This document shows, in pieces, positions 1,690 to 63,237 of a stretch of DNA of 64,000 bases. The first letter of the stretch is position 1. Each line of letters starts with the position of its first letter. This DNA comes from a virus (lineage: Duplodnaviria; Caudoviricetes). Below the pieces are notes generated by a model. It was not told where the DNA came from. It did not search any database and was given only the letters and a program-made list of their open reading frames with translations. Location of the stretch: the IMG/VR virus record IMGVR_UViG_3300020576_005251, positions 64,001 through 128,000 of that record; one strand, written 5' to 3'. Both the position numbers and the translations under genes were made by a program.

Positions 1690-2381
1690 TGAACGACCAA
1701 TACGCCGTATCGCGCAGCTACGAGATGGGCGTTGACGCCACCTGGACGCGTCTCGGGTTCACCAAGACAGCGGGGACTCTCGACACCGTGAAGCGGATCG
1801 CGTCGTGGCCCTTCCGCTTTCACCAGTTGAGCGGCACTCCGACAACCTTTGGTCAAAAGGTGTGGCACGGGGCGGCGCCCATTCTCGACATGACCCGCCA
1901 CATGGCCATCGGCTCCCCGGTCGACGAGTGGAACCGCTTCCAGCACTTGCGTCAGCAGAGTGGGTCGGGGCTAAAGGCATACGGCCAGATGGCGAAGGAC
2001 TATCTCTGGAGTCCGGGATACACAGGTGAAGGCGGCGCAGGGAAGTGGATCCGTCGCAGCATGAACGCCCTGGGTGTGGCAGGCACTGGCGCCGAAGCCT
2101 ACCGAGCTCTAACGGGCGATCCTTCGCAGCGCGCAGGGGATATCGCGGCGCTCGGCACCAGCCTCGTGGCGGGGCCTGTGACCGGGTCCCTGGGCATGTT
2201 CGCAGGGCCCATGGTGCACAGCGCCCTCACCTCTACTGCGCGTAGTGCTGGACACCTCCTCGATTCTCCCACACAACAGCCTCTCGAACTCCCGCCTTCG
2301 CGCGACGTTCCGGAGCACGTCAGCCGCGCCTTGCGCAGCTACAACACGATCAAGGACCAAACTGGCGCGGAACCGCGCTAG
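1689..2381 (+). CDS. Putative virion/internal head protein with Gly-rich hydrophobic segments
   Basis: TGATG-coupled to the RNAP gene; N-terminal SYEMGVDATWTRLGFTKTAG leader ending in K-x-A. Confidence 0.6.
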   Translation: MNDQYAVSRSYEMGVDATWTRLGFTKTAGTLDTVKRIASWPFRFHQLSGTPTTFGQKVWHGAAPILDMTRHMAIGSPVDEWNRFQHLRQQSGSGLKAYGQMAKDYLWSPGYTGEGGAGKWIRRSMNALGVAGTGAEAYRALTGDPSQRAGDIAALGTSLVAGPVTGSLGMFAGPMVHSALTSTARSAGHLLDSPTQQPLELPPSRDVPEHVSRALRSYNTIKDQTGAEPR

Positions 2382-2406
2382 ACTACCCATCACAGGAGAT
2401 CTCTCG

Positions 2407-4347
2407 ATGCACCTCTTCCAACGCACACTGCTCCAGGGCGCACACGACCGTCTCGTGGACGCAGGGCGCATGCTCCCCTTCGCCAACGACGAGCTCGCGA
2501 CGGAGGTGTTCGACAAGATCGCCTCCGACATGGGCCTGCCCGCGATCCTCACCGAGCGTCCCAACTCCAAGCAGGCGGCGGCGCTCGGGAACGCGCTGAT
2601 CGACTACAGCCAGAAGCTCGCCGCGAGCGGCTACGGTCCCGACCAGGAGCTCATGGGCCTCGCCAAGCAGGCGAGCGTCAAGGACCCGAGCGACCGCGCG
2701 CTGATCGTCGCCGAGTACTACATCCAGAAGGCGGCGGAGGAGGGCTCGATCCACGAGAGCGGCGGCATCGGCCTGCGCGCGGCGGGCGAGCACGACCCGA
2801 TGGCGCGGCTCGACCTGATGAACCGGGCGACCGGCGCGTACGCCGTATCGCAGGGCCAGTCGAACTTCGCCATGCCCGGGGTGCTCGGCCGCGAGCTGGC
2901 GGCGCCGGGGGCGCCGAGCACGGGGGCGAACGTGAGCTCGAAGATCGCCGAGAGCGACCTGACCATCGAGCAGATGCGTGCTCGTACGGAGCAGATGGCG
3001 AACGCGGCGCGTCAGCAGTCGAGCATGGCGCAGCCTGCGGCCGTCCGAGGGTCTGCGGTGGTCCCGTCGTCGATCCAAGGGTTCAAGACTGAGGCGCCCT
3101 CGGGCTCTGGCGGGCGTCTCCCCTCCGCGCAGTCGTGGACGAACGCGCTCGACGCCGCTCCGGTCCCCCAGCGTCTGAACGCGCTGGATGTGGCCGCGCA
3201 CGGTCTGCCCGTGGATCCGCACAATCCCACCGGGTGGCAGCAGCTGAAGCAGGAGTTCGGCTCCTCCAACCGTCAGCACCTGGAGCACTGGGGCGACCGC
3301 ACGGGCTGGGGCAAGGCGCGCAGCGCGGGGGTCCTCGGCGCGCGCGCCGCAGGGGTCGGCGGCGCCGTCGTGGCGGCTGGTCTCGGTGCCCGCGCCCTCT
3401 ACCGCCACTTCAACCCGGAAGAGAAGCAGGTCCAGGCGTCGGAGAAGGTCGCGCTCGACATGCCCGACTTCGGGAAGACCTGGGACTCCATCAAGGGCAT
3501 GACGCGCTACTACCGCGATCGTGCGGGTGAGGGCATGGGCGCCCGCGCCCAGCAGGTGGGCAACTTCTTCTCCGAGAATGCCCAGGGGCTGGGCGAGCGC
3601 CTGACGGACGCGCGGAACGCTCAGCAGTGGGTCGGGTCTTCGGCCGAAGCCCTCCAGGGGCTCGGTCACAGCGACGCGAGCATGCGCGCGCTCCGCAACC
3701 AGAACCTCATGGAAGCCCTCGGGCACGGCGCGCGTCTCGCGGCCCCCGCTGCGGGCCTCGCTGCCGCTGGCGGTCTCGCCTACGGCGGCAAGAAGCTCTA
3801 CGACCACCTCCAGGGCTCGCCCGAGGACATGGAGGTCAACGCGAGCGACGACAGCCTCGGCGCCCTCGCGCAGGCCCTCCAGGAGCACGGGATCGATCCG
3901 ACCCCCGAGCTCCTCGCGGAGCTGCACGAGGCGATGGAGGCGGAAGAGGGTGGCGGCGGCGAGATGCCGCCCGGCGCCCCGAGCGGCCAGGAGCCCCCGA
4001 AGCAGGCCGCTGAGGGCTCGCTCCACCCGACGCCCCCGGGCAACAAGCTCACGGGCGCCGCCGCGCACGACCCGATCGCGGCCCTCGACGTGAAGAACCG
4101 CGCCCCCGGGTCCTACAAGGTCCCCCAGGGAAAGACCGAGCTCTCGACCGCGAGCGGCACGATCGGCGACGAGAAGAAGGCGTCCGAGAACGCGTGGCGC
4201 GAGAACATCGTGAAGACCGCCCAGGAGTGGGGACCCTACCTCCCGGCCGCGTGGCCGGAGAACGTCAAGCACGCCGCGATCCAGAACATCGCCGCGCAGG
4301 CCCCCTCGGATCGCCAGCGCTTCGTGCAGTCCCTCCTCCGCCGCTGA
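2407..4347 (+). CDS. Putative internal head protein with an internally duplicated module
   Basis: AGGAG RBS before ATG 2407 (ORF-track start 2245 is probably too early); many K-x-A motifs; two copies of an EGSxH…HDPxAxLDxxNRAxGxYxVxQG module. Confidence 0.65.
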   Translation: MHLFQRTLLQGAHDRLVDAGRMLPFANDELATEVFDKIASDMGLPAILTERPNSKQAAALGNALIDYSQKLAASGYGPDQELMGLAKQASVKDPSDRALIVAEYYIQKAAEEGSIHESGGIGLRAAGEHDPMARLDLMNRATGAYAVSQGQSNFAMPGVLGRELAAPGAPSTGANVSSKIAESDLTIEQMRARTEQMANAARQQSSMAQPAAVRGSAVVPSSIQGFKTEAPSGSGGRLPSAQSWTNALDAAPVPQRLNALDVAAHGLPVDPHNPTGWQQLKQEFGSSNRQHLEHWGDRTGWGKARSAGVLGARAAGVGGAVVAAGLGARALYRHFNPEEKQVQASEKVALDMPDFGKTWDSIKGMTRYYRDRAGEGMGARAQQVGNFFSENAQGLGERLTDARNAQQWVGSSAEALQGLGHSDASMRALRNQNLMEALGHGARLAAPAAGLAAAGGLAYGGKKLYDHLQGSPEDMEVNASDDSLGALAQALQEHGIDPTPELLAELHEAMEAEEGGGGEMPPGAPSGQEPPKQAAEGSLHPTPPGNKLTGAAAHDPIAALDVKNRAPGSYKVPQGKTELSTASGTIGDEKKASENAWRENIVKTAQEWGPYLPAAWPENVKHAAIQNIAAQAPSDRQRFVQSLLRR

Positions 4348-4374
4348 CGAAAGGCATCGTACACTAGCGGTACG

Positions 4375-6915
4375 ATGCCGTTCGCCGACCTGCAATCCCC
4401 CCGATCACAAGAGTTCGCCAACGCGCCGTCGCCCGACGACGAGGAGGCCCTGTTCACACAGGGCTTCACCGATCTGGCGTACAAGGCCCTCGCCAAGGGA
4501 GCGCCGACGCTGCGCTCCTCGGTGATCACCTTCCGCGACCTGGAGAAGGATGTCGCGAAGGGCGAAGCCGTGGGCGCGTTCATCGTGCGGCACGGCACCG
4601 AGATCGTGTACGTGCCGGTGGTGCTGGTCGACAACGCGGTGAAGCCGCTCGATGTCTTCTACGCGCGCACGGTCGACCGCTTCTACCCCCTCACCCCGCA
4701 GTGGCTCGATCGCGTGGACCGAGAGACGGTCAACCCGATGGGCCGTGCGATGGACGCGCCGAAGAACGTTCCCACCGATGTCGACCTCCGGTCGATCGTG
4801 ATCCCGCCGACCCTCGGCCGCTTCTCGTACGCAGAGGTCGAGAACACGAAGCTCGCGTTCACGCGCGTGATGCGAGAACTCCGGGAGCCCACCGGATCCT
4901 TCCTCGCCTGCGTGAAGCAGGCCCCCAACCACCTCAAGGTGGCCATGGCCGAGGGGCTCCGTCGCCAGCCCCGGGCCCTCAGCCTGATGGTGGAGCAATA
5001 CGGCGTATCGGCCCTCACCGACGCCCTGAGCCCCTCGCAGGAAAAGCGCGCATCTTCGCAGGAGACGCCCGTTCGGCACGACGTGCGGATGTATTCCGCC
5101 TCGATGCCTGTGCAGGAGATGCAGCGCCAGCTGGGCGCGGGGGAAGCCGCCCACGCGTACAGCCACATCCGCAAGCACGGGTTCTACATCCAGGACACGC
5201 GCAAGAGCCACAACGCCCTCGCGGCGTCAGGGGCGGAGCGGCTCGCGCTGACGACGCCCACTGCGACGGGGCTCTACCGCGTCTACCTGCACGACGGGTC
5301 GTGCAAGGTGGCGGCGGTGATCGTGAACCCGCGTCAGAACTACAAACTCATGCCACGCCTCTACGGCGATACGCGCCGCGAACCCACCGACATCCTGGTG
5401 CTCTTTCAGGACGGTTCGTACGCCCAGCCCAGCGGCATCCTCGCCGAGGCGCTCACGGTCTCCCAAGGAGAGTTCGAGAGCTTCTTCCTCTCACGCGCCC
5501 AGGCGCTGCCGAGCAAGGTCGACGAGTGCGGCGTGCTCGGCCACTTCTTCGCGATGAGCGCCGACTTCACGGAGCCGCAGTACGCGCGAGAGATCCAGCG
5601 CGGAGAGAACACGTCTACGTTCCGTTCGGGGTTCGGCGTGATCTGCCGCGTGACCGGCAAGATCGGCGGCATCAAGGCTCTGCCCCACGGGCTGCTCTAC
5701 GGAGAGGATTCGTTCTGGTGGCCCGTGGGAGAGCAGATCTCTTCCAGCATGTTCCCCACCGATCCGCGCATGATCTCGACCCTGATCGACGCCCAGCTCA
5801 CCAAGGAGGGTGCGGTGCCGATCCGCGTGAAGGTGTCCTCGGATCAGGGGTTCATCGTCGGCCGCGAGGTGCTCTACGGACCCGAAGCCATCGTGAAGGT
5901 GGCATCGGTGTACGGCCTGAACATCGACGACGCCACAGCGGTGCTGGAGACCGTGAAGACCCGCGCCCCGGTCCGCCTGTGGGCCAAGACGGCGGAGCCT
6001 GCGCCCGCCCCTGCGCCGCCTCCCCAGGACCCCAACGCCATGCCGATGGACCCGGCGATGATGGGTCCGCCCATGCCCCCGCCGCCCAGCGGGATGGACC
6101 TCGCCATCACCGAGAAGACTCAGCTGATCCAGCAGCAGATCCTCGCCCTTCAGCAGCAGGCGATGATGCTTCAGGAGGTCCAGATGCGCGCCCAGGGCAT
6201 CGATGGCAGCGGCGGGATGATCGCAGCGCCGCAGGCCGCTCTCGGTGTGATGGGCGCTCCGCCCGCGACGGTGGGTGGGGCTCCGGCGATCGCGCCGATG
6301 GGCAGCATGCCGGGGATGTTGCCGCAGATGGGCCAGCCGCAGATGGGGATGCAGCCGCAGATGGGGATGCAGCCTCAGATGGGCATGGGAATGCAGCCTC
6401 CGATGGGCATGAACCAGCCGCAGCCGGGGATGCCCGGGACGACGCCGGGAATCCCCCAGATGGGTGGCATGGTGGACCCCAACCAGATGGGTGGGGTGAT
6501 GGATCCCAACCAGATGGGCATGCAGGCGCCCCCTCCGCAGCCGGTGATGAGCGAGACGCCCACGGCGGACACGATCGCGAACATGATCGATCCGAAGTTC
6601 CTACAGGACGCGTCACTCCTGGGGGATCCGCGTGTGTTCGACGCCGCCGCCGTGGCCTCGCTGGCGAAGCCGCGTGCGCTCCGGGAGATCTTCCGGAACT
6701 ACGCGCCCACGCTCGATGCCGCCCTCGACAAGCTGGGCCGAACCCTCATCCTCCTCTACACGCAGGCGACGGAACTGCGCGACACGATGGGCGACGAGGC
6801 GTACCAGCGAATCGAGCAGCAGGCGCGTGACACCTTCCGTGTTCTGGGTGATACACTGATCACCTTGGAAGAGCACGGGGCTCACATCCCCGACGGAAAC
6901 AGTCCGACGAGGTAA
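4375..6915 (+). CDS. Large head-morphogenesis-region protein with M/Q/P/G low-complexity tract
   Basis: 846-aa ORF in the virion block; K-x-A motifs; low-complexity QPQMGM tract at about 6000-6550. Confidence 0.6.
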   Translation: MPFADLQSPRSQEFANAPSPDDEEALFTQGFTDLAYKALAKGAPTLRSSVITFRDLEKDVAKGEAVGAFIVRHGTEIVYVPVVLVDNAVKPLDVFYARTVDRFYPLTPQWLDRVDRETVNPMGRAMDAPKNVPTDVDLRSIVIPPTLGRFSYAEVENTKLAFTRVMRELREPTGSFLACVKQAPNHLKVAMAEGLRRQPRALSLMVEQYGVSALTDALSPSQEKRASSQETPVRHDVRMYSASMPVQEMQRQLGAGEAAHAYSHIRKHGFYIQDTRKSHNALAASGAERLALTTPTATGLYRVYLHDGSCKVAAVIVNPRQNYKLMPRLYGDTRREPTDILVLFQDGSYAQPSGILAEALTVSQGEFESFFLSRAQALPSKVDECGVLGHFFAMSADFTEPQYAREIQRGENTSTFRSGFGVICRVTGKIGGIKALPHGLLYGEDSFWWPVGEQISSSMFPTDPRMISTLIDAQLTKEGAVPIRVKVSSDQGFIVGREVLYGPEAIVKVASVYGLNIDDATAVLETVKTRAPVRLWAKTAEPAPAPAPPPQDPNAMPMDPAMMGPPMPPPPSGMDLAITEKTQLIQQQILALQQQAMMLQEVQMRAQGIDGSGGMIAAPQAALGVMGAPPATVGGAPAIAPMGSMPGMLPQMGQPQMGMQPQMGMQPQMGMGMQPPMGMNQPQPGMPGTTPGIPQMGGMVDPNQMGGVMDPNQMGMQAPPPQPVMSETPTADTIANMIDPKFLQDASLLGDPRVFDAAAVASLAKPRALREIFRNYAPTLDAALDKLGRTLILLYTQATELRDTMGDEAYQRIEQQARDTFRVLGDTLITLEEHGAHIPDGNSPTR

Positions 6916-6916
6916 C

Positions 6917-7645
6917 ATGTCCACCCTCCAGCCAGACCGATCAGCCCGACGCGCGCGCGCTGCGTCGGTTGGTGGGTCGCCCGACGGGCTCAATGAGCTC
7001 GAAGGTAAGCTCTACGATTGCCTGCGGGGTCTGGAGGGCCTCCCGGTAGACGAAGACGTGTCCGAGGCGTACGCCTTGTCACGCTCCGTCTACCGGCATG
7101 TCTTGAACGCCCTGCTCCTGGTCAAAGCCGACATCCCCACCATCGCCAGTGGGCTCGACATGACCGAGGCGTGCATTACGGCGTATCGGGACCTGTTCTT
7201 CGATGTCCGTGTGTTCCGCAACGCGTTTCAGGTGCGCACGTTCATCTCGAACCTCGTGGACGACGACACCGAGGAGTTCAAGTCCTACAACCTCGCGCTC
7301 GTCGAGGGGGCGGACTCCCTGATCGATCGGTACCGCGTGGGCGAAGCGCCGCCCCCCGACCCGAAGGTCGTGGTGTCGCGAGCGGTGCGTGAGTTCATGT
7401 CGCGGTCACGAGAGCACCGAGGGCAGCGGCTCACAAGCAAGGCCGCTCAAGAGTCCTTGCGGTGCGCGCGAGATGCCGTCAGCGCGAGCAGCCACCTGCA
7501 CAGCATCTCGCCGAGCACCACCCCCGGCCAGCAGGCTGAGCTCCAGTGGCGTCTGGCCCTGGTCCCCAACGACACGACCATCCCTGCCGCCAGCGCTCCG
7601 GTTCTCGTGACAGAGTTGGTGCGCTCCGGCCCCGCCCCGCAGTAG
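6917..7645 (+). CDS. Hypothetical protein (head module)
   Basis: GAGG RBS; tiles between neighbouring genes. Confidence 0.65.
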   Translation: MSTLQPDRSARRARAASVGGSPDGLNELEGKLYDCLRGLEGLPVDEDVSEAYALSRSVYRHVLNALLLVKADIPTIASGLDMTEACITAYRDLFFDVRVFRNAFQVRTFISNLVDDDTEEFKSYNLALVEGADSLIDRYRVGEAPPPDPKVVVSRAVREFMSRSREHRGQRLTSKAAQESLRCARDAVSASSHLHSISPSTTPGQQAELQWRLALVPNDTTIPAASAPVLVTELVRSGPAPQ

Positions 7646-7654: not shown

Positions 7655-8446
7655 GTGAGAACACAGGAAGAGTTTCTGGCTGAGGGGCGCCGCCTCGCGC
7701 AAGCCTACGCGGAAGCCCAAGACATCGGCGGGAACACCCCCGACGCCTTGGTGGAGAAGTGCGCGCGCGAGAAGGGGCTGAACGCCGAGCAGATCCGGCG
7801 TCTGGGCCGCGCGACGAACGTCTCGCTCTTCGCGGTGAAGTACGCCGCCGCTGCGGGGCAGACCGACCGTCGCGTGGAGTTCCCCACGGTCGACCCGGAG
7901 GCGATCATCACCAGCCTCCGTGCGCCCGAGCCCGAAGGCCCTGTGAAGCTCGCGGCGGAAGCGTACCCGAGCTTCGTGAACCCGAACACGCCCGCGATCG
8001 AGAAGGTCGCGGAGGCCGAGGCGCCTCCCCCGCTCTCCGCACGCGAGGTCTGGCGCGAGCGGGACAACCTCTGGCGTCTCCAGCGTGAACTCCCGGCAGA
8101 GGTCGGTGCGATCCAGGAGAAGTGGGCCTCCTGCATCAGCAGCCTCCTCCCCACGTGTCGCCGTGTCGATCACGACCACCTGGAGTTCGAGAAGAACGCC
8201 GTGGCGGTGCTCGGTGAGAACGTGGTGCCGGAGCTCAACGCGGTCCGCGCGCGACTGAAGATGCCGCCGCTGCCTGCGAGCCTGGACAAGTACGCCGCCG
8301 CGCGCGAGTTCCTGGTGGGGGAGGACAACGCCCTCACGGAGCGCCTGAAGACGGCGATGGATCTGAGGCAGCAATACGGCGTACAGTCGGAGCTGCTGAG
8401 CAAGGTTGAGGCCGCGTACGCGGCGTCGAGGGCGGTGGGGCGATGA
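7655..8446 (+). CDS. Hypothetical head-module protein
   Basis: TAGACT box 6 nt before GTG; VKLAAE and EKVAE motifs; ATGA overlap with next gene. Confidence 0.65.
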   Translation: MRTQEEFLAEGRRLAQAYAEAQDIGGNTPDALVEKCAREKGLNAEQIRRLGRATNVSLFAVKYAAAAGQTDRRVEFPTVDPEAIITSLRAPEPEGPVKLAAEAYPSFVNPNTPAIEKVAEAEAPPPLSAREVWRERDNLWRLQRELPAEVGAIQEKWASCISSLLPTCRRVDHDHLEFEKNAVAVLGENVVPELNAVRARLKMPPLPASLDKYAAAREFLVGEDNALTERLKTAMDLRQQYGVQSELLSKVEAAYAASRAVGR

Positions 8447-10983: not shown

Positions 10984-12693
10984 GTGTACAAGCGCATCGA
11001 GTTCGACCCGTACTTCCCGAAGACCGGCGAGGCGACCATTCAGCTCGCTGCGTTCCCCAACCGGCGTGGCGGGATGTCGATCGAGAAGCGGGCGTTCGCT
11101 CAGAGCGAGAGCCCCCTGTACGGCGTATTGGACACGATTCGCCCTGAAGTCGGTGTGACCTACCTGCTGGTGAACGCTCTCAGCGCGTGGGAGTACTACG
11201 ACGACAACAAGAACGGGGACGGCTTCAACGAGCGTCCGTACCGCGTCGGGGTGCGCGCATCGTGCGGGCACCCGGACTGCACGAAGACACTCGATGGGTG
11301 GATCGCGGAGCACGAGCTCGTCACGAAGCACTACCACACCTTCGAGGAGCACGGCGGGATCTACGTCCACCACAAGAACCAGGACAAGTCCAAGTCGCGG
11401 GGCAAGGTCGTCAAGTCGATCTGGAACCCGAAGATGCACCGTAACGAGCTGCTGCTCCGGTACGTCAATGACCGGGGTGTAGAGATCGTCGATCGCGTGG
11501 CGTCGGGCGACTTCCCGGCTGTGTCAATGGGCACGCATGTGAAGTGGGATGTCTGCACGATCTGCGGACACCGAGCAGCCACGCGCGCGCAGTACTGCGA
11601 TCACGCGCGCAACCACCTGCGCAAGATCCTGGGGGACGGGAGGAAGGTTTCAGTCCTGAACCCATCCCCTCGGTTCTTCGACATCTCCATGGTCATCAAG
11701 CCCGCCGACCCCACCGGCTGGACCTTGATGAAGGTAGCAGAGGACCTCGCGTACGCCGTATCGAGCGCCGAGCTCGGCGAGCAGTGGCAGCAGGCCCAGC
11801 GTGTCTCGGAGACCTTCCACAAGGTCGCTGAGGAGATCGGGTCTGCCTGGGCAAACCCCACGAGCTTCATCGGCCACTTCGCGCGGCAGGCCCATTCAGC
11901 AGGGGTTGAGCCCTTCCCCGCCCAGGGCACGATCTACCGCTTCGCGGCAGAGAAGCTCGGGCTGGACCTCAGCGAGCAGCACATCGATCGGCTGGTGTTG
12001 GCGACGCCTGCGCTGACTGCGATCCTCGGCACCTACCCCGAGGAGATCCAGAAGGTGGCGAGCGAGATCCATCACGTCATGCGCCAGCAGGCGTACGAGC
12101 CGAGCGCCGACTTCCCCGACTTCGGCATCGGACCGGGCGCGGCCTACAGGGCGGCGGAGCCCCCGCGCACGGACATGCTGACTGTGACCGACCCGTACAC
12201 GGGTCACGTCTACCAGACCACGCGCGGCACCGCGATGGACGCGTCGCGGGCGGACGTGAAGGACCGGCTCCTTCGTACAGGACTCTTTGGAGGCTTGTAC
12301 GCGGCGGGCCTGCACTTGGGTCTGAAGGGTGGTCTCGGTCTCTGGAGTGTGCCTGCGGGGCTCGCGCTCGGCGCCAGCACCGACCGCTTCCTGCGTCGGT
12401 CTTCTCCGCCCTACCGGAACCCGCTCTACCAGACCGACCAGGGCATCCCCGTCTCGGGCGGCACCGAGTTCAAGCAGGCGTCGGCCTGGGCCGCGAAGCT
12501 CGCGGAAGACCTCCACGAGCGCTCGGGCGACGGGCGGATCGAGTCGATCCTGCGTCGCACATCCTTCACGTTTCAGAAGTGGGCTTCGCTCCCCGTGTCC
12601 GAGCAGGTAGACTACCTGCTGTCCAATGAGGGCAGCGCCCCTCTGAACGCCTCCACGCTCGCAGACAACCTGTACCGGCTCCTCACGAGCTGA
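10984..12693 (+). CDS. Prohead (head maturation) serine protease with Zn-finger insertion and C-terminal extension
   Basis: NxNGDGF, IYVHH, AVSMGTHVKWDVCTICGH…YCDH and FFDISMVIKPAD motifs resemble HK97/assemblin-type phage prohead proteases; lies upstream of scaffold-like and capsid genes. Confidence 0.75.
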   Translation: MYKRIEFDPYFPKTGEATIQLAAFPNRRGGMSIEKRAFAQSESPLYGVLDTIRPEVGVTYLLVNALSAWEYYDDNKNGDGFNERPYRVGVRASCGHPDCTKTLDGWIAEHELVTKHYHTFEEHGGIYVHHKNQDKSKSRGKVVKSIWNPKMHRNELLLRYVNDRGVEIVDRVASGDFPAVSMGTHVKWDVCTICGHRAATRAQYCDHARNHLRKILGDGRKVSVLNPSPRFFDISMVIKPADPTGWTLMKVAEDLAYAVSSAELGEQWQQAQRVSETFHKVAEEIGSAWANPTSFIGHFARQAHSAGVEPFPAQGTIYRFAAEKLGLDLSEQHIDRLVLATPALTAILGTYPEEIQKVASEIHHVMRQQAYEPSADFPDFGIGPGAAYRAAEPPRTDMLTVTDPYTGHVYQTTRGTAMDASRADVKDRLLRTGLFGGLYAAGLHLGLKGGLGLWSVPAGLALGASTDRFLRRSSPPYRNPLYQTDQGIPVSGGTEFKQASAWAAKLAEDLHERSGDGRIESILRRTSFTFQKWASLPVSEQVDYLLSNEGSAPLNASTLADNLYRLLTS

Positions 12694-13340: not shown

Positions 13341-13717
13341 GCTCACTCCTCCGAACCCTCGCCCGAATCAACGGCGCCCCGCAGGCGAAGGTCGCGCACG
13401 CCGCACCTGCGCCCGCTGCGGCTCCATCCGACGGCCTCCCCCAGCTGATCAAGCAGGCGTCAGAGCTTCTCCGCAACGCGCCCCCTGTGGACGTTCGCAA
13501 CGAGGACCTGTACGCCGTATTGAAGGTCGCGGAGGCGCCTGTCGAGCTTCCGGCGCCTCCGTCCGGCGACACTGGACCGGACCAGCTCCGCAAGCTGGCG
13601 CACGCGCTCCGCGTCGTGGAACTCCAGCGCCAGGAGCTGCGCATGGAGAAGGCCGCGCACATGCTGCTGGCTACGCGCAGCCTTACCCTACTGGACGAGC
13701 AGACGAGGAGCCGATGA
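13337..13717 (+). CDS. Small head/scaffold-region protein
   Basis: ATGA overlap and GAGG RBS place the start at 13337, not 12953; KVAH, KQAS, KVAE, KLAH, KAAH motifs. Confidence 0.6.
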   Translation: MSSLLRTLARINGAPQAKVAHAAPAPAAAPSDGLPQLIKQASELLRNAPPVDVRNEDLYAVLKVAEAPVELPAPPSGDTGPDQLRKLAHALRVVELQRQELRMEKAAHMLLATRSLTLLDEQTRSR

Positions 13718-15921: not shown

Positions 15922-16747
15922 GGTCACTCAAGTCATCTCCGTGTTTCCCCGGGGCGTGTTCCTCCAGTGGACGCTTCGTGACGCAACCGAGTCGGGCGCT
16001 TATCTGGCGACCGTCGAGCGTTCTGGGAGCGCAGAAGGGCCGTGGGAGGTCATCCTCCCGCCCACGGCAGATCAATACGCCGTACGGGACGCGCTCGACC
16101 AAGCCCCGACCACCCCCTCCTACTTGTCTCCGAACCAGCTGACGCTGATGGATCGCCTCCACTACCGGATCCGCGTGAAGACGCCGAGCGGTCGTGAGCT
16201 CTCCTGCGTCACCGACACCAACGCAGCGACACCCAACCCAACGCCTGCGGCCTCCAAGATGCTCCAGCACAAGCGGCACATCCAGCTGGAGTTCACCAAG
16301 AGCCTGCGATACCTCGGGACCCCGGTGCTCCTGTACAAGCGGAGGCGATGGGGCGTCCGGTGTTCCCGCTGCGTAGACCCGCGCACCAACAAGGTCGTGC
16401 GCGCGGACTGTCGCGCTTGCTGGGGCACAGGGTTCGAAGGCGGCTACTGGACGCCGTACCCCACGGAGGCGGTGCGCAGCTCGCTGGAAAGCAGCGTCAC
16501 CCCGACGAGCGACAAGAAGGCGGAGGGGGCCTCGACGAACGTGATCCTCCCGGTCTACCCCGCAGCGGAGCCAGACGATGTCCTGGTCTGTCTCGAAGAT
16601 CAGAAGCGCTTCGTGATCCAGTCCCAGGTGCAGTCCGAGATCCGGTTGCGCGGTGTCGTGCAGACACTCGGGGCCTTGGAACTCAGCCGAGATCACGTAC
16701 TCTTCTCCTTGAACGCACAGCCCCTCACCGTTCCGCCGCTGTACTGA
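15911..16747 (+). CDS. Putative neck/head-completion protein with Zn-binding CxxC…CxxCWGTGF
   Basis: GGAGG RBS; CSRC…CRACWGTGFEGGY; lies between capsid and sheath genes. Confidence 0.55.
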   Translation: MRVEVTQVISVFPRGVFLQWTLRDATESGAYLATVERSGSAEGPWEVILPPTADQYAVRDALDQAPTTPSYLSPNQLTLMDRLHYRIRVKTPSGRELSCVTDTNAATPNPTPAASKMLQHKRHIQLEFTKSLRYLGTPVLLYKRRRWGVRCSRCVDPRTNKVVRADCRACWGTGFEGGYWTPYPTEAVRSSLESSVTPTSDKKAEGASTNVILPVYPAAEPDDVLVCLEDQKRFVIQSQVQSEIRLRGVVQTLGALELSRDHVLFSLNAQPLTVPPLY

Positions 16748-21308: not shown

Positions 21309-21353
21309 ACCACCACGGTCCAATACGCCGTACTCTTCACCTGAGGACCCCAG

Positions 21354-37109: not shown

Positions 37110-37142
37110 CCCCACAAGGATACGCCGTATTACCCTAACCTC

Positions 37143-45042: not shown

Positions 45043-45086
45043 GGACGTTCTCCTGGTACCTGTAGGGCACACTGCTCCTACACCTC

Positions 45087-45115
45087 CTTATACCAGAAAA
45101 CACCCCCTGTTTCAG
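45087..45115 (-). promoter_or_regulatory. sigma70-like promoter CTGAAA-N17-TATAAG
   Basis: Similar arrangement at 45500-45528, 31490-31519 and 56019-56046. Confidence 0.55.
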
Positions 45116-45483: not shown

Positions 45484-45524
45484 AGAACACCTCCACGTAC
45501 TTATACCCGGGGAGGTGCTCCCTT

Positions 45525-46067
45525 TCAGACCGTGATCCGCCTCTCATCCGGCCCGAACTCCCCCGCCTTCTCGAAGATCAGCACCCAGTCCAGGCCCGGT
45601 TCCAGCCACACGGGGGCCTTCCAGCGGCCCGTGGCGTCGGTCAATACGGCGTACTCCGACACGTCCCGACGCCCACGGTCCCACTCCGAGGCCCGAAAGA
45701 GCCGGATGATGGCGTCGGGGATCCCCTGGTTGGAGGGGGTCACGTAGCGCAGGTTGTCAGGGTCTTCGAAGTTGTGGTCCACCCGGGTGCGCGAGGCGAG
45801 CCCTGCGGCGACAGCGGCGGACGGCTGGAAGGGGCCGCTGTCGCCGTAGAGCTCCCCGTTGGGGCCGAGGGCGCGTACGCGGTACACGGTGGTGTCGGTG
45901 CCCTGAGGGTCCTCGATGGAGAAGCGACGGAAGGGCGCCTCCCAGTAGGGCCCGGGGACCTGATGGGCGATGGAGGTCAGGAAGCGCTCGGGGGTCTCGA
46001 CGAGGTGGACCTCGTAGCGCGTGGGGGTGTAGACCTCGGGCGGGGTCCAGTAGATGCGTTGGGCCAT
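45525..46067 (-). CDS. Putative virion structural protein (beta-rich)
   Basis: TACCCT-N6-ATG start; VDHNF…LRYV…TDATGRW. Confidence 0.5.
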   Translation of the reverse strand: MAQRIYWTPPEVYTPTRYEVHLVETPERFLTSIAHQVPGPYWEAPFRRFSIEDPQGTDTTVYRVRALGPNGELYGDSGPFQPSAAVAAGLASRTRVDHNFEDPDNLRYVTPSNQGIPDAIIRLFRASEWDRGRRDVSEYAVLTDATGRWKAPVWLEPGLDWVLIFEKAGEFGPDERRITV

Positions 46068-46787: not shown

Positions 46788-47125
46788 GTCGTAGCCTCCT
46801 TCTCGAACAGCACCATGTAGAGATAGCCACCCGACGCCCGGGGGTTGTATCGCATCACCCACTTCGAATACGCCGTAAGGCTCACTTCGTACTCGCAGTC
46901 GGCACGCGGGTCCAGATCGCTCCCGGAGTCCCGCAGGTCCTTCTTCACCTCGGAGATGAAGCGCTTGATGACCTTCTTCGGCACGTCAGCGCCGAGGCGG
47001 CTCTGTCGATCCGGCAGGAACTCCAGCGGCAATCGTCGATTGCCGTAGTTGAGGATCGCCCGCGCCGCCCAGGCGCGCTTGGTGCCTTCGGGAGGGCGGA
47101 GGCCGTACCACTCGTCGGTGGTCAT
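46784..47125 (-). CDS. Hypothetical protein
   Basis: ATGA-coupled start MTTDEW. Confidence 0.55.
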   Translation of the reverse strand: MTTDEWYGLRPPEGTKRAWAARAILNYGNRRLPLEFLPDRQSRLGADVPKKVIKRFISEVKKDLRDSGSDLDPRADCEYEVSLTAYSKWVMRYNPRASGGYLYMVLFEKEATT

Positions 47126-48914: not shown

Positions 48915-49452
48915 TCTTGATCTCCTTCGCAGCTTGGCGAATCACCTGCGGCGCATCGAAGAGCCACTTCGACTCACCTTGCGGGAGGGTGTCCAGTTCA
49001 TCTCGAATCGCATTGAGCTGCTTGGCGTCTTCGGCCGTCAGCTCCTCCCTCGCGAGAAGTTCGTCCCGCTGCTTCTGAAGTTCGAGCACGCGTGGCGATC
49101 GGTAGCCGAGGCGAACGATCGCGGCGAGCTTGGGGTAGCTGAGGTCACCAGCTAACTTGTGGGACATGCCGACAGCGCGGCTGACGGCCAGGACGTTCGG
49201 GTCGTAGCCGAACCGCCAGGGGGTGGTGATGCTCAGGTACACGAGGCCGTACGCCGTACGACGCCCTTCGCAGTAGAGCAGAGAAAGCGCCTGTCGGGCT
49301 TTGGCGTGGAAGCGCGCCCAGAAGACATCGTCGTAGATGCGGGAGTGGGCCACGTGGCCTCGGAGAACCTGGGAAGGCACGTGACTTGAGATCGAGAGGG
49401 CCGACGCGTTGAGATAGCGAAGGCCGAACAGGCGTTGACTCATGAAACTCAT
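48907..49452 (-). CDS. Hypothetical protein
   Basis: Coupled ORF. Confidence 0.55.
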   Translation of the reverse strand: MSFMSQRLFGLRYLNASALSISSHVPSQVLRGHVAHSRIYDDVFWARFHAKARQALSLLYCEGRRTAYGLVYLSITTPWRFGYDPNVLAVSRAVGMSHKLAGDLSYPKLAAIVRLGYRSPRVLELQKQRDELLAREELTAEDAKQLNAIRDELDTLPQGESKWLFDAPQVIRQAAKEIKSE

Positions 49453-50782: not shown

Positions 50783-50814
50783 CTTACCTCCCTACCAAAA
50801 GAGTGTGAACCAAT

Positions 50815-50850
50815 ACGGCGTACGGCGCGCTCGAACGCGCCGTACGCCGT
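50815..50850. other. Perfect 15-bp hairpin built around the TACGGCGTA motif
   Basis: acggcgtacggcgcg-ctcgaa-cgcgccgtacgccgt, intergenic. Confidence 0.8.
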
Positions 50851-50870: not shown

Positions 50871-51668
50871 TCAGTCGATCTTGCGGACCTCGTTGGGATA
50901 GAAGAGCATGAGCTTCGGCCCCGCGAAGACCTGATCCTGGGGGCGTACGACGTACTGGTAGCCACCGAGGTTGTAGGTGATGGGTGCGTCGAGGGGCGTG
51001 CTAATCACGCCCACTGCGTGGGCGAGCGCGCCCTCGAAGAAGTTCCCGCGCTTGAGGTAGACGCGTGCGAACCGCCCACCCTCCGGCGTCAGCGCCCACT
51101 GGGCGGGCGACGTGTCGATGGCGCGCAGTTCATCCCGGAACGTCTCGATGACGTGGAAGGCGTGTACCCCAGATGGCGCCGCGCGTGCGGCGGGGCTCAT
51201 CCGCACTCCCTCGGCCGCGTTCAGCGAGCGGCGGTAGATCTGGTAGGCCGACGCGCCCCGCAGAGAGTCGTAGGGCGCGGCGAGGGTCTCAGCGAGGGAT
51301 TGCCACAGATCCTCCGCCCGATTGCGAATCTTGACCCACTCGGTCTCGGTGTACGAACCACGTCGGTCCGACTGCGCCAGACACCACGTCCAGAGCCCTC
51401 GAATGCGGTAGAACATGCCCTCCGCGTCGATGAGTTCCGCCTCGCCCTTGGGGACGAGCTTGGTGAGATCGACGCCTTTGAGGGTCTCGGCCACACCGAA
51501 GAGCGGGTGGCCGATCTGCTCTTCGAGTTCGAGCTGGACCTGCGCGTGCCCGGCGTATCCGTCGGCGATGAGCGTCTGGAGCCCGTCGAGGTCGGAGGCG
51601 TAGGGCTTGGGGTCGGGGGCGTATCGGGCGACGGTGAGGATGTAGCGGTCGATCCAGATCTTCTTCAT
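50871..51668 (-). CDS. Hypothetical protein (tandem paralogue of 51665-52537)
   Basis: ATGA-coupled start MKKIWIDRY; shared N- and C-terminal patterns. Confidence 0.6.
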   Translation of the reverse strand: MKKIWIDRYILTVARYAPDPKPYASDLDGLQTLIADGYAGHAQVQLELEEQIGHPLFGVAETLKGVDLTKLVPKGEAELIDAEGMFYRIRGLWTWCLAQSDRRGSYTETEWVKIRNRAEDLWQSLAETLAAPYDSLRGASAYQIYRRSLNAAEGVRMSPAARAAPSGVHAFHVIETFRDELRAIDTSPAQWALTPEGGRFARVYLKRGNFFEGALAHAVGVISTPLDAPITYNLGGYQYVVRPQDQVFAGPKLMLFYPNEVRKID

Positions 51669-53117: not shown

Positions 53118-53635
53118 GCGCCCTCCGGGAAGAGCTCGGGGAAGTCGCGGCGGATCTTGCAGCGGCCCTTGAGGACGCTGGAGGTCTCCATCAACCGAAC
53201 GAAGTCGGGGGTCAGGATGTAGAAGCTCCAGCTGAAGTCGTGGCGGTAGACGCACAGGTACTGCCCCAGGGCGAGCTGGTCCGGGAACACCGCCTGCTCC
53301 TTGGGGCTGACACGCAGGAGCGTGAAGCACTTGTTGATGTAGCTGCGATCGAACACCTCGCGAGAGGAGTCGAGGCCCACCAGCGCGTGGGCGATGCCGA
53401 GGAGATCAGGCTCGTGCAGCTCATCGCCCACGCACTCGATGCGTACGGCGTATCCCTCGGCCTGAGGGTTCTTCTCCCAGTAGGCCCTGAAGTAGTCGTG
53501 GATGTACTCGCCGTGGTCTTCGGTGAAGGGCGTCGACGCCCTCGACTCTTTCAACGCTCGATCGAGCGCCATCAGGTCGTACTTGTCCAGGTCGACGCTC
53601 ACGGTCGCGAGCGGCTTCTTCTCATCTTCACTCAT
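53114..53635 (-). CDS. Hypothetical protein
   Basis: Coupled ORF. Confidence 0.6.
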   Translation of the reverse strand: MSEDEKKPLATVSVDLDKYDLMALDRALKESRASTPFTEDHGEYIHDYFRAYWEKNPQAEGYAVRIECVGDELHEPDLLGIAHALVGLDSSREVFDRSYINKCFTLLRVSPKEQAVFPDQLALGQYLCVYRHDFSWSFYILTPDFVRLMETSSVLKGRCKIRRDFPELFPEGA

Positions 53636-53859: not shown

Positions 53860-54404
53860 CGGCCAAGCAACGCGTTCAATGCGAACCTACCAGTGAGGCG
53901 CCGAACTTCATCCACAGTAACGCGAAGAATCGCAGCCTGCCCTGCGTCGCCCTCCATCCAGAAACGACGGTTGGGTCTGAACCCACCCGCGAATCGGCGC
54001 CGCCAGTAGTGATACCTCGGCGAACCCCCTGGAGGCGGCTTGTCATAGGGGTCGGGGGTGGGGCCGCGCGGGACGCGACCACGGATCTTGAAGATGGTGG
54101 GTTCGATCTCCCAGAGGCGTTCGAGAGGAAGGTCGTAGAGCAGAACCGCACCTGCTTGTGTGGTGTCAAGCGCGAGCGGGAGTTTCGGGTCGCTTCCCGT
54201 GAAGAACCCGATCAGGTGGCCGTACGGAAACCACTCGACGGCGGATGGTCCGTACCAGTAGCTCCGCAGCCACACATACGGAGGGGCCCCGTTGAGAAGC
54301 GCGCCCAGGTGCGTCTCCATACGCCGTACGAGCGCCTCGTGGTGCCTCGCCTTCTCGCGATCGACCTTATGCATCAGCCGATGCAGTTCACCGCGTGTCA
54401 TCAC
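53856..54404 (-). CDS. Hypothetical protein
   Basis: Coupled ORF. Confidence 0.55.
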   Translation of the reverse strand: MMTRGELHRLMHKVDREKARHHEALVRRMETHLGALLNGAPPYVWLRSYWYGPSAVEWFPYGHLIGFFTGSDPKLPLALDTTQAGAVLLYDLPLERLWEIEPTIFKIRGRVPRGPTPDPYDKPPPGGSPRYHYWRRRFAGGFRPNRRFWMEGDAGQAAILRVTVDEVRRLTGRFALNALLGR

Positions 54405-56042: not shown

Positions 56043-56654
56043 TCAGACTACGTAGCGAAGGTAGGCAGGATCGATGGCGCCTTCATCCGAGAGCGCCCAG
56101 GCGGCAGGAGAGCCGTGAAGCCCCGCAATCACCTGTGTGAGTTGCACGGTCACGCCGTTCAAACGCCCCAGCTTCCTCACGAGTCGCGTGCCGTGCGAGT
56201 AGTCGGCGTACTTCTTCGAGTGCACGGTACAGAGCGGCTGGACCGGCTTGACGGCGCCCTTGTACCACGCGCCGTAGATGATCACCTTGTCGCGCTTCTT
56301 TCGAAGTAGGCGCGACACCACGATGTCCTTCTTGTGGTCCACGAAGAGCCCCACACGCCCAGCGCGGTCCGCCTCGATCTTCTCGTTGGAGGTGCGCACG
56401 AGCCGATGGGCGGTGATGCTCTCGCCTGTGACGGGTCGCACGGAGCGGAAGGGGAGGTGGACGGCGTCAGGCGCCTCCCGGATACGCCGTACGATGGCGG
56501 GCGTCGGGAGCATGGCCTCGTACTCGTCGGCGTAGAGCTGCGCGACGGCCGGGGTGAGGGCCATTCGAACACCAGCGTCGTCTTGCAGGTAGTCGGTGGT
56601 AACTTCGATCTCCAAGCCCTCGGGGCAGGAGATCCAGATCCAGTTGGGGGTCAT
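56043..56654 (-). CDS. Hypothetical enzyme-like protein
   Basis: TACTTT-N5-ATG start; HKKDIV…IIYGAW…QPL…HS..YADYSHGTRLV look like conserved motifs; function not recognised. Confidence 0.55.
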   Translation of the reverse strand: MTPNWIWISCPEGLEIEVTTDYLQDDAGVRMALTPAVAQLYADEYEAMLPTPAIVRRIREAPDAVHLPFRSVRPVTGESITAHRLVRTSNEKIEADRAGRVGLFVDHKKDIVVSRLLRKKRDKVIIYGAWYKGAVKPVQPLCTVHSKKYADYSHGTRLVRKLGRLNGVTVQLTQVIAGLHGSPAAWALSDEGAIDPAYLRYVV

Positions 56655-58562: not shown

Positions 58563-59056
58563 GGGAGGTCGTAGAGCTTTCCGTTGAGAGTCATCTTCGC
58601 TTCGCCGCCCATAACCCCCGCCCTCGACAACATGCCGATGGCGATCAGGCGGTAGAGACGCAGGGGGAGGCCGAGCGGGGCGGTCGTCCTGAACCCCATG
58701 CCTGCCTGGGTGTTCGAGGGAAGGCCCTTCACTTCGATCGTGACACACCCCGTGTCGAACACGTTGAGGTGAACCGTCTGTGCGAGGTGCTTGGCGTGCT
58801 CTTCGATCTGACTCTCGTCAGCGTAGTTGAGCATCGGAAGCAGCGTGTCCGCGATACGGCGTACGGCTCGTTCTGCATGGTCGTGGCTCAGATCTGACAC
58901 AAGGTGCGTCACGCCTTCGACAACCGAATCCCAGGCTGCGATGTCCGGCGTCGCCACCTGCGCACGATCCACGTGGAACACCCAGCGGGACCTCCCATCA
59001 AGGTCTTCGTTGCGCAGCGTCACCCGATACACGTCTTCTGTGAATGAAAACTCCAT
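58559..59056 (-). CDS. Hypothetical protein
   Basis: Coupled ORF. Confidence 0.55.
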   Translation of the reverse strand: MEFSFTEDVYRVTLRNEDLDGRSRWVFHVDRAQVATPDIAAWDSVVEGVTHLVSDLSHDHAERAVRRIADTLLPMLNYADESQIEEHAKHLAQTVHLNVFDTGCVTIEVKGLPSNTQAGMGFRTTAPLGLPLRLYRLIAIGMLSRAGVMGGEAKMTLNGKLYDLP

Positions 59057-60172: not shown

Positions 60173-60372
60173 CTCCGCCCCGCCATCGCCTTGAGCTCCA
60201 CCTCCAGGCTCAGGAGTACGGCGTATCGAGCCACCTCCACCTGCTTCACCCCTTTCAGCCCCCTCCGGGTCTGCTGCACACGCCGTGCCACGTCCTCGGG
60301 AGTGGTGCCGTCGCGGTGCGCCTCGGGTGCCCACCGCCTGATCTTCGCCCAGAGCGCTTGCCTGTTCTCCAT
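60169..60372 (-). CDS. Small hypothetical protein
   Basis: First gene of the - operon downstream of the non-coding locus. Confidence 0.5.
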   Translation of the reverse strand: MENRQALWAKIRRWAPEAHRDGTTPEDVARRVQQTRRGLKGVKQVEVARYAVLLSLEVELKAMAGRR

Positions 60373-61818: not shown

Positions 61819-61848
61819 GAGCCGCCGCCCCTCGACGGGCGGCGGCTC
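61819..61848 (-). terminator. Intrinsic terminator
   Basis: 12-bp stem gagccgccgccc/gggcggcggctc with T-tract on the - strand, downstream of the stop at 61880. Confidence 0.75.
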
Positions 61849-61879
61849 ATCGAGGGGGCGGCGTTCGTACGGCGTACGG

Positions 61880-62161
61880 TCAGGGTGAGGGCTTGATCCC
61901 TATCTCCTCCAACCTCTCCTCCAGCTTCCACTCCGGCCACGCCCGAAGCCCGCCGCTGTCCGAGTGGTTGACCAGGAAGTACCGCTTGCGAGGGTTGAGT
62001 GTGGGCTTGTGGTCGAGCTCCGTCACCCAGAACCCTCGCGCCTTGTAGTCCGACGCGAGGGCACCCGTCTCCGTGAGGATGAGGACGGTCCGCCCCAGCT
62101 TGACCAGCAGGAAGCGAGGGGCGGAGGGTAGTTCGGAGGCGTCCCGAACGCGGTGTGTCAC
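61880..62161 (-). CDS. Hypothetical protein
   Basis: GTGA-coupled start. Confidence 0.5.
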   Translation of the reverse strand: MTHRVRDASELPSAPRFLLVKLGRTVLILTETGALASDYKARGFWVTELDHKPTLNPRKRYFLVNHSDSGGLRAWPEWKLEERLEEIGIKPSP

Positions 62162-63237
62162 TTCACACTCGCCCAGATCGCCTCGTACTCGGGGTGGTTG
62201 GGTCGAGGCTCGCCAGCGGGGCGGACGTGGGCAGCTCGCGTGACGTACTGTCGGTACTCGAACAGAGCCTTCTTGTGTTCGGCGGCAGAGAAGCCACTCT
62301 GGTACCCCATCCGCACGCGGTCCTGCTCCTGCTTCCGAAGGGAGCACTCCGCGTACTCCACCGCCGCCTTCCGATACTTCTCGAAGTCCACCTCCACCTT
62401 CCCCACCTGACGAATCAGGGCGGGCTTCTTGACGACGCGGCACGCCCAGGGTTCGGCGGTCGTAGGGTCTTGCTGCTCGGCCCACTCTTTGGCCCAGAGC
62501 TCGATCGTCTCTCGATCGGACTCCTTCGCCACGTACATGCTCAGGTCCACCCAGACATTGACCCCCCGTTCGAGCTTTACGGCGTATTCCGCAGGCCGCA
62601 TCGGGTAGCCGTACACCGCCTTCTTCGTCTCGACGATGTCATCCACGTCGCACTTGCCCAGGTAGACCATCGCATCGAGCTTCCGGGTGAGGTACACCCC
62701 ACCCAGCTCGTAGTCCGCCTGCGTCAGGTCCTTGGTCGCCTTGCGCTCAGCGGCCTCCAGCATCGCCTTGTGGAGCGTTGACCCCACCCGCACGAGCCGG
62801 AGCTGTGTCTCGTAGCGCCCCCACACGAACGGCCCCGCGAGGATGCCGCCCTTCTTCGCCCCGCTCGCGAGGAGCGCATCGAGCACCACATCCTCACGCA
62901 TGTCGACGTAGAGCGTCCCATCCAGCACGCCACCCAACCGCACCTTGTAGGCACGCCCTCCTTCCTGCCGCACCTCCAGGCTCAGGATCTCGACGGACTT
63001 GATGGGGTCGTTGTCGAGCGTGGTGGAGGTGCACTTGCCATCCCCACCCCACCCCGCCGCCCATCTCCGCGCCGTCTCCTTCCCGTCCTTGGACTGTTCG
63101 TCCACCGCGAACGCAGGCGTCGCGGTGACAGGCGGGGCGATGTCGAGGTCGCTGAAGCCCGTCCAGCCGCGCCGCACCTCGACCTCCTCGCGCTGGAAGT
63201 ACACGAGGCGCTTGGGAATCTCACCGTAGATGATCAC
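62158..63237 (-). CDS. Hypothetical phage protein
   Basis: GTGA-coupled start VIIYGEIP; EVRQEGGRAYKV…YVDMREDV. Confidence 0.6.
   Translation of the reverse strand: MIIYGEIPKRLVYFQREEVEVRRGWTGFSDLDIAPPVTATPAFAVDEQSKDGKETARRWAAGWGGDGKCTSTTLDNDPIKSVEILSLEVRQEGGRAYKVRLGGVLDGTLYVDMREDVVLDALLASGAKKGGILAGPFVWGRYETQLRLVRVGSTLHKAMLEAAERKATKDLTQADYELGGVYLTRKLDAMVYLGKCDVDDIVETKKAVYGYPMRPAEYAVKLERGVNVWVDLSMYVAKESDRETIELWAKEWAEQQDPTTAEPWACRVVKKPALIRQVGKVEVDFEKYRKAAVEYAECSLRKQEQDRVRMGYQSGFSAAEHKKALFEYRQYVTRAAHVRPAGEPRPNHPEYEAIWASVK

Follow-up and report, generated by a model that had tools for sequence, protein, structure and literature searches.

Noc of Bacillus subtilis works from ∼70 sites on a chromosome of 4.2 Mb, about one per 60 kb and none of them at the terminus, and uses an N-terminal amphipathic helix to anchor DNA at the membrane. 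KorB of the IncP plasmid RK2 works together with IncC (a ParA) and KorA from about a dozen OB operators on 60 kb, most of which lie in promoter regions. Noc is an orphan ParB paralogue without a ParA that spreads from many dispersed palindromic Noc-binding sites (NBS) in a manner dependent on cytidine triphosphate (CTP) (PMC8429893). KorB, a ParB-family protein with an N-terminal nucleotide-binding domain and a helix-turn-helix (HTH), recognizes an odd palindrome with a central S (C or G), TTTAGCGGCTAAA, at sites dispersed over the replicon, from which it slides as a CTP clamp and acts at a distance (PMC11790492). Orphan ParB-like genes are common in phages as well, and surveys call their roles unknown (PMC12704722). 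In this study we describe a lattice of ∼100 palindromic sites with the core word TACGSCGTA that is written through the genome of a phage (Duplodnaviria; Caudoviricetes), IMG/VR virus record IMGVR_UViG_3300020576_005251, together with an orphan ParB-like protein of the same genome, P0001, as its candidate reader. The stretch from which the study started, here called the window, has 64,000 nucleotides and corresponds to bases 64001-128000 of this single record of 172,885 bp, which has 64.4% GC and is rated 100% complete. The papers that we could search describe KorB, Noc and ParB as well as ParB-like domains of phages without an assigned role, but no genome-wide lattice of ParB sites in a phage; a search for the word itself gave only primers and unrelated matches.

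The phage resembles the KorB system in that its word is likewise an odd palindrome with a central S, and in that the structural model of P0001 reaches a template-modelling score (TM-score) of 0.70 to KorB (8qa9). It differs in that its 173 kb carry ∼100 evenly spaced sites, of which 82% are intragenic, in the lack of any detected ParA, and in the replicon itself, a large phage with its own RNA polymerase and not a plasmid. Noc structures are the top Foldseek matches of the P0001 model, and Noc too does without a ParA; however, the phage lattice is ∼30 times denser and uniform, and P0001 begins with a disordered Lys/Glu-rich tail. With ParB-parS the phage shares the fold, aligned GxxRxxA and ENxxR motifs and palindromic sites, but its sites are not clustered near an origin, a ParA was again not found, the glutamate of the GERR motif is replaced by Arg and the Pfam domain ParB_N was not detected. 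The initial annotation of the window, made from its letters alone, had compared the sites with those of Noc and matS, and this analogy fits.

Other repeated words are more distant. The stoperators of cluster A mycobacteriophages (L5, Bxb1) also comprise dozens of copies of an exact word, scattered through a phage genome and read by one phage protein. Those are asymmetric words that follow the direction of transcription, occupy short intergenic spaces and function in prophage silencing, whereas the word described here is palindromic, has no orientation and lies inside genes in 75 of 92 cases. Uptake sequences (USS/DUS), HIP1 and Chi are over-represented short words written into genes genome-wide, and uptake sequences are also spaced more evenly than chance. 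Those words are properties of cellular lineages, whereas the phage word is specific to one clade and stays at background in the bacteria that we sampled. In contrast to Chi it is a strict palindrome without any pattern of orientation along the genome.

RESULTS

A sharply specified palindrome occurs at even spacing along the whole genome

The complete genome holds 92 exact TACGSCGTA sites, one per 1.9 kb, and 9 more with A or T at the centre. In the window we recovered the 32 exact copies and the four A/T-centred variants of the initial annotation at the same positions (Table 1), where dinucleotide shuffles give 0.14 ± 0.38 and 0.11 copies, respectively. Its count of only 4 intergenic copies among the exact ones also holds with our own gene calls. 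Markov models of order 3-5 predict 0.9-3.6 copies per centre variant genome-wide against 44-48 observed (48 with C and 44 with G, with no trend along the genome). The full motif is wider than the word noted at first: it reads RTACGSCGTAY, with the flanking purine or pyrimidine present in ∼94% of half-sites and weak preferences at -2 and -3, and amounts to ∼19 bits in total. Versions with one mismatch occur in 0-6 copies each, which is background (composition-matched control words, 0-3), and the specification of the motif is therefore sharp. A 21-bp duplex bearing the motif would contain CAATACGSCGTATTG. To find the sites, 10.7 bits are needed in the phage genome alone and ∼15.3 bits when a host chromosome of 4 Mb is added. 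With ∼19 bits, the word is in keeping with a signal that has to single out the phage DNA within its host.

The spacing of the sites, which had been suspected from the window to be too even, is clearly not that of random placement on the full genome. The coefficient of variation (CV) of the gaps is 0.577, where random placement gives 0.98, and this evenness was not reached in any of 20,000 simulations (P<5e-5). The largest gap between exact sites is 5166 bp where 9561 bp would be expected, and the Fano factor of site counts per 5 kb is 0.28. With four tight pairs merged, a single gap is shorter than 500 bp (19.6 expected). The A/T-centred variants fall into larger gaps than expected (mean enclosing gap 3398 versus 2516 bp, P=0.012) and their distance from exact sites is double that of random points (P=0.001), which suggests that they act as functional gap fillers. 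As claimed before, the two largest exact-site gaps of the window (23433-28599 and 42039-45645) each hold a variant, and with the variants included no gap there exceeds ∼2.9 kb (largest, 2907 bp). Hence the grid has both a floor and a ceiling on spacing. Such a pattern would be expected if no stretch of DNA may be out of reach of a site and if further sites close by bring no benefit.

Table 1. Palindromic sites of the lattice. Positions are window coordinates except in the last line, which gives genome coordinates.
Feature	Position	Context
Exact site, CAATACGCCGTATCG	1701..1709	+ gene, frame 0 (Y-A-V)
Exact site, centre C	2839..2847	+ gene, frame 0
Exact site, centre G	4999..5007	+ gene, frame 0
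Exact site, centre G	7177..7185	+ gene, frame 2
Exact site, centre G	8375..8383	+ gene, frame 0
Exact site, centre G	11119..11127	+ gene, frame 0
Exact site, centre C	11752..11760	+ gene, frame 0
Exact site, centre C	13511..13519	+ gene, frame 0
Exact site, centre C	16076..16084	+ gene, frame 0
Exact site, centre G	17649..17657	tail-sheath gene, frame 2
Exact site, centre C	19739..19747	tail-sheath gene, frame 1
Exact site, centre C	21324..21332	intergenic
Exact site, centre C	23433..23441	+ gene, frame 0
A/T-centre variant, TACGTCGTA	26167..26175	middle of largest exact-site gap (5166 bp)
Exact site, centre C	28599..28607	+ gene, frame 2
Exact site, centre G	30143..30151	- gene, frame 0
Exact site, centre G	32232..32240	- gene, frame 0
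Exact site, centre C	34133..34141	- gene, frame 0
A/T-centre variant, TACGTCGTA	35369..35377	
Exact site, centre C	36213..36221	- gene, frame 0
Exact site, centre C	37121..37129	intergenic, divergent gene pair
Exact site, centre G	40028..40036	- gene, frame 0
Exact site, centre C	42039..42047	+ gene, frame 2
A/T-centre variant, TACGACGTA	44343..44351	within exact-site gap of 3606 bp
Exact site, centre G	45645..45653	- gene, frame 0
Exact site, centre C	46869..46877	- gene, frame 2
Exact site, centre C	49250..49258	- gene, frame 2
Exact site, centre G	50814..50822	intergenic
A/T-centre variant, TACGACGTA	50946..50954	132 bp from exact site
Exact site, centre G	53444..53452	- gene, frame 0
Exact site, centre C	54320..54328	- gene, frame 1
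Exact site, centre C	56483..56491	- gene, frame 1
Exact site, centre G	58855..58863	- gene, frame 1
Exact site, centre G	60217..60225	- gene, frame 0
Exact site, centre G	61868..61876	intergenic
Exact site, centre G	62578..62586	- gene, frame 0
Tight site pairs	49889/49941, 139590/139614, 154418/154439, 158670/158698	intergenic, outside window

Selection acts on the DNA and bends codons and peptides

With a self-trained codon model we called 238 genes, which cover 94.5% of the genome and contain 75 of the 92 sites (82%). When synonymous codons are shuffled within the genes 3.5 ± 1.9 of these remain, so that the enrichment persists under a codon-preserving null as it does under the dinucleotide one, and when the order of codons is shuffled 0.8 remain. 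Among the 58 Y-[A/G]-V tripeptides of the proteome, 36 are spelled TAC-GSC-GTA, where codon usage predicts 1.9%; the expectation is this low because GTA is the rarest valine codon. Moreover, the proteome holds 2.4-2.6 times as many Y[AG]V and T[AP]Y tripeptides as amino-acid frequencies would give. Codon spelling and tripeptide excess together thus reveal selection at the level of DNA that is strong enough to shape protein sequence, in agreement with the earlier proposal that the DNA and not the protein is selected. A signal at the level of RNA can be rejected, since the centre base shows no bias relative to the coding strand (38 G, 37 C).

Intergenic DNA makes up 5.5% of the genome yet holds 17 of the 92 sites. 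Among these are the four tight pairs, with members 21-52 bp apart. In all four the first site is G-centred and the second C-centred, and the two copies of each pair are therefore exact inverted repeats of each other. Of the pairs, one is situated between convergent genes and another immediately upstream of the second gene for an SNF2 helicase. A reading of the pairs as hairpins or terminators is weakened by the pair upstream of the ParB-like gene, which is C/C in the related fragment G001 described below.

Positions are conserved over short distances and turn over at long ones

Searches with DNA or with single proteins found no close relatives in the phage collection or in IMG/VR, and profiles were needed; contigs of related phages were reached through homologues of a neighbouring gene. 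G001, an IMG/VR fragment of 34.7 kb, is collinear with positions 28469-63927 of the genome (G000) at 83% nucleotide identity. In this fragment 21 of 23 sites stand at the same positions, where the chance of survival for eight fixed bases in the alignment is 0.27 (P=1.5e-10), and at the conserved sites the centre flips between C and G. The gaps of G001 are even as well (CV 0.53, P=0.001). A clade survey seeded with the terminase gave 24 records, most of them 100-190 kb long. One of these, G387, is complete with direct terminal repeats and has ∼70% identity where it can be aligned; it carries 90 sites with a CV of 0.47 and keeps 10 of 24 alignable positions versus a background of 0.076. Another, G394, has 46 sites of its own and shares none of 13 alignable positions with G000. 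Positions are thus kept over short distances and turn over at long ones, and the grid itself persists. The nearest cultured phages, Salmonella phage Arash and Vibrio phage D181, have ∼29-30% identity in the sheath protein and are too distant to inform; in these two the word is not above control (5 and 4 copies versus 2 and 3), and no ParB-like match was found. By their run labels, the metagenomes that contain the phage come from wastewater, freshwater and marine habitats. At the ends of the record, positions 1-60 and 172826-172885 are G-rich and nearly repeated (GGGCGGTCAGGAGGGCTGGG...), and the ends therefore overlap.

The word is at background in the bacterial genomes sampled

The initial annotation had named absence from the host as a check on the lattice. 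We surveyed 382 bacterial genomes, 301 of one proteobacterial class (that of G002) and 81 Alphaproteobacteria, in which RTACGSCGTAY occurs in 0-15 copies per genome, no more than the reversed control word. The outcome is independent of four unpublished genomes among them (G045, G147, G302 and G346). Five further genomes from other groups hold one core site per 50-870 kb, compared with one per 1.9 kb in the phage. A 15-mer scan of 185,579 species gave, among the matches listed, scattered single hits in unrelated taxa and no bacterial assembly with a lattice; the flanks of these hits contain 8 extra core sites in 861 kb. Two Parabacteroides loci (L081 and L060) with 2-3 core sites within 8 kb stand above the other chance hits and may represent a repeated element. 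As these genomes are samples, they provide an indirect form of the check. No tRNA genes were found in the window.

An orphan ParB-like protein is the candidate reader

P0001 has 394 amino acids and is encoded on the minus strand at genome positions 48324-49508, ∼14.5 kb upstream of the window start. It matches Pfam HTH_ParB with E=8.6e-7 and 29.5 bits (curated cut-off, 22.6), and the profile of its family matches structures of Spo0J, ParB and Noc. In the profile alignment to Spo0J (1vz0), G135-R-C-R-T-R-A141 of P0001 falls on GERRYRA and E170-N171..R174 (ENVAR) on ENLQR; G135, R136, R138, E170, N171 and R174 are invariant in 12 family members. An AlphaFold model built from 12 sequences has a confidence (pLDDT) of 79. 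Its Foldseek matches are led by Noc, CTP-bound ParB and KorB, with E down to 1e-8, and the alignments of 220-250 columns span the nucleotide-binding N-domain and the HTH, with the DNA-binding domains of Noc, ParB and KorB among the matches. The best TM-score is that to KorB given above. A confident helical hairpin is predicted for residues 311-364, after a disordered linker. For a ParA-type ATPase we searched with PF13614 (AAA_31), which had no match in this complete genome and was matched in 14 of 14 control genomes. Two genes of the window had been put forward as readers (59648-60172 and 61191-61670); neither has a Pfam match, and nothing else spoke for them.

The gene of P0001 lies in a conserved block of an SNF2 helicase gene, a small protein gene, the ParB-like gene and a sigma-70-like gene, which adjoins the genes for the phage RNA polymerase and DNA polymerase A. 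At ∼400 bp upstream of the ParB-like gene, two sites with a distance of 52 bp form a pair that is kept in five contigs (G000, G001, L008, L012 and L018/L019) with ParB identity down to 42%. Between this pair and the start of the ParB-like gene (genome 49509-49950; L003:13509-13950, minus) lies an open reading frame (ORF) of 33 codons with two CxxC pairs (CPQC...CPNC) and the look of a mini-zinc-ribbon. Its product could assist the clamp as a small partner, in the way that KorA works with KorB, or the ORF could be just spacer DNA. Just upstream of the window, at genome 54611-61897 (L004:611-7897), a gene for 2428 amino acids has RNA polymerase beta and beta-prime domains in relatives as well as LAGLIDADG and pyrophosphatase-like matches, and a further piece similar to RNA polymerase beta occupies window positions 85-1689. 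The genome has two sigma-70-like genes, including the one beside the ParB-like gene. Elsewhere in the window, positions 47713-48495 encode a DUF6197 domain protein (Pfam E=6e-16).

ParB-like genes and lattices mostly occur together in the clade

In contigs that bear an ortholog of the ParB-like gene, TACGNCGTA is the commonest odd (4+N+4) palindrome down to 25% ParB identity, with the exception of the two shortest such contigs, L020 and L025. All 8 records of the survey with close orthologs (E<1e-30) and a TACG-type site set have 12-90 sites (controls, 0-2). Four records without a ParB-like match (G399, G400, G401 and G409) have 1 site each, and G399, which is 100% complete, has no lattice of any kind.

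Sister lineages use other words for a similar grid. In G390, where the ortholog is diverged, TACG sites number only 6, and the lattice consists of TTCAC-N3-GTGAA, with 39 copies in 131 kb and a CV of 0.54. The same word occurs 38 times in 88 kb of G406, a fragment rated 51% complete in which no ParB match was found, and TTAC-N3-GTAA occurs 43 times in 179 kb of G405 (CV 0.50). Centre-aligned, the three lattice words share A-C ... G-T at -3/-2 and +2/+3 and differ symmetrically further out. Symmetric rewriting would be the pattern expected if a dimeric reader and its half-site changed together. The 8 TACG-type proteins all have Ser at position 208, where the recognition helix starts, whereas G390 has Ala there and G405 has Thr. 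A further genome, G395, may carry TAACC-N-GGTTA (14 copies versus 0.09 expected). Across the 24 records ParB-like genes and lattices mostly co-occur, with exceptions, an association that is suggestive and not decisive. Outside the clade, a very distant ParB-like homologue is found in four IMG/VR contigs of 32% GC (L148-L151, one labelled GVMAG), which hold 11-13 copies of TTCT-NN-AGAA, often TTTCT-NN-AGAAA, within ∼5.5 kb around the ParB-like gene. We rejected these as a lattice: the longer contigs have few copies elsewhere, and the arrangement looks like a classical centromere-like cluster in an unrelated virus lineage.

DISCUSSION

Our data directly support a genome-wide lattice, selection at the level of DNA, a constraint on spacing, conservation and turnover of site positions, a ParB fold with its motifs and a clade-wide association between gene and lattice. 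A sharp palindrome at even spacing and conserved positions is well explained by the proposal of the initial annotation that a dimeric protein acts along the whole chromosome at these sites. On balance we think it probable that the sites serve to load such a symmetric dimer and that P0001, as an orphan member of the ParB/Noc/KorB family, is the protein in question. From the analogy with ParB-parS, Noc-NBS and KorB-OB we infer how this might work, including the binding of P0001 to the motif, its sliding and the purpose of the resulting coat. Dimers of P0001 would load at each palindrome, close as a clamp and then spread or slide over a limited distance of a kilobase or two. Through the ∼1.9-kb lattice the phage genome, and it alone in the cell, would be coated or marked over its full length, and selection would ensure that no point of the chromosome is farther than roughly 1-2.5 kb from a site. 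Such a coat might mark the genome as self against phage or host nucleases, it might condense the DNA into a compartment for replication or packaging, or it might, as a mobile factor, activate or silence transcription by the RNA polymerase and sigma factors that the phage encodes. Precedents for long-range control of transcription are KorB (PMC11790492) and BisD (PMC12409273).

Several observations weigh against this reading. The link between P0001 and the lattice is correlational. A correlation just as good would arise for any gene with gains or losses on the same branches, and the four ParB-less records may form one subclade, so that the association may rest on few independent events. Six ParB-positive genomes have few sites (G397, G404 and G396, 11-12; G402, 4; G395 and G407, 1), and the presence of a ParB-like gene alone is therefore no predictor of a dense lattice. 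The recognition helix varies and ParB identity drops to 25-30%, yet the motif does not change. At the protein level, P0001 has Arg136 in place of the glutamate of the GERR hydrolysis motif, a position held by Arg, His or Tyr in most members of the clade, with only G403 reading GERRWRA, and Pfam ParB_N was not detected in P0001; its use of CTP is therefore uncertain. Arg136 lowers the confidence in canonical CTP hydrolysis, not in membership of the ParB fold. Finally, KorB did not condense DNA in vitro (PMC11790492), and hence a condensing role cannot be assumed from family membership.

It is rather unlikely, but deserves attention, that another symmetric DNA-binding protein, a small phage protein or one of the host, reads the lattice and that the ParB-like gene does a different job, for example local regulation through the upstream pair. 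Most of the ∼238 genes have no family match and could hide such a reader, and both the ParB-positive relatives without a dense lattice and the unchanged motif beside a diverging ParB would be understandable. However, no alternative reader emerged, and the two genes of the window once proposed have no detectable DNA-binding family; ParB-like is the only family detected here with members known to use dispersed palindromes, and the four ParB-less records hold one site each.

A role of the sites as targets of DNA modification or as a self-mark, which had also been suggested from the window, found no support, and we regard it as improbable. In this case the ParB-like protein might be a targeting or activating subunit, as in the ParB-dependent thymine dioxygenases of phages. 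ParB-like activators of such enzymes exist (PMC13229309), the outer positions of the motif are T/A, and the genome encodes a deoxynucleoside monophosphate (dNMP) kinase, a deoxycytidine monophosphate (dCMP) deaminase and ThyX. But the dioxygenase-associated ParBs have no DNA-binding domain (PMC13229309), whereas P0001 has an HTH. Searches of the complete genome for N6/N4 and C5 methylases and for TGT/DpdA gave no match to PF01555, PF00145 and PF01702; Tet/JBP (PF12851) gave no match either, a blank that is uninformative because no control genome had one. Moreover, modification targets are normally tolerated or avoided and not made at even spacing at a cost to protein sequence.

We also give little credence to a role in single-strand or break transactions, be it as a palindromic Chi-like signal for a helicase-nuclease, as a site of regular nicks, or as a priming site that sets the length of Okazaki fragments. 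Bacterial Okazaki fragments have a length that resembles the ∼1.9-kb spacing, and the phage has genes for two SNF2 helicases, a UvrD-like helicase, an exonuclease and a PD-(D/E)XK nuclease. The Chi, nick and primase signals known so far have an asymmetric, strand-oriented form and do not exceed 8 nt, unlike the strict 11-bp palindrome described here, the centre base of which has no strand preference. Motif-linked nicks are reported for a Pseudomonas phage cluster (PMC11780129); nicking both strands of a palindrome, however, would make a double-strand break. Least of all do we believe in a functionless by-product of mutation or repair bias or a host-type compositional quirk, for even if over-abundant palindromes without a known reader exist in cells, HIP1 being an example, a bias cannot yield under-dispersed spacing, gap-filling variants and position conservation far above background, the sampled bacterial genomes and the flanks of chance hits show no enrichment, and sister lineages carry other words on the same kind of grid.

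If P0001 is the reader, a wider scheme can be drawn up, to which we hold only tentatively. In it, a clade of large phages (∼170-190 kb) from aquatic habitats and wastewater that bring their own RNA polymerase would coat the entire chromosome with a ParB-type clamp that has no partner, as a label of self loaded at lineage-specific palindromes of the form xTAC-N3-GTAx, with a spacing set by the sliding range of the clamp. The coat might gather phage genomes into a protected ParB condensate, as a protein-only counterpart of the phage nucleus, or it might be a mobile platform through which phage transcription, or protection from nucleases, is confined to phage DNA.

In conclusion, our findings give one orphan phage ParB-like protein a concrete and testable candidate job, together with a natural substrate: ∼100 defined sites and sister lineages in which the word is rewritten symmetrically. 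The word is nearly absent from bacterial genomes and can therefore be used as a marker of the clade in metagenomes. Selection for the lattice is strong enough to bias codon choice and tripeptide content. If the clamp model were true, this virus would encode a genome-wide address of self in its DNA sequence and not in base modifications, and the sliding range of a ParB clamp would be linked to a constraint on site spacing. It might then be possible, as a tentative outlook, that these phages represent a mode of viral chromosome organisation that has not been described before and that may be general.

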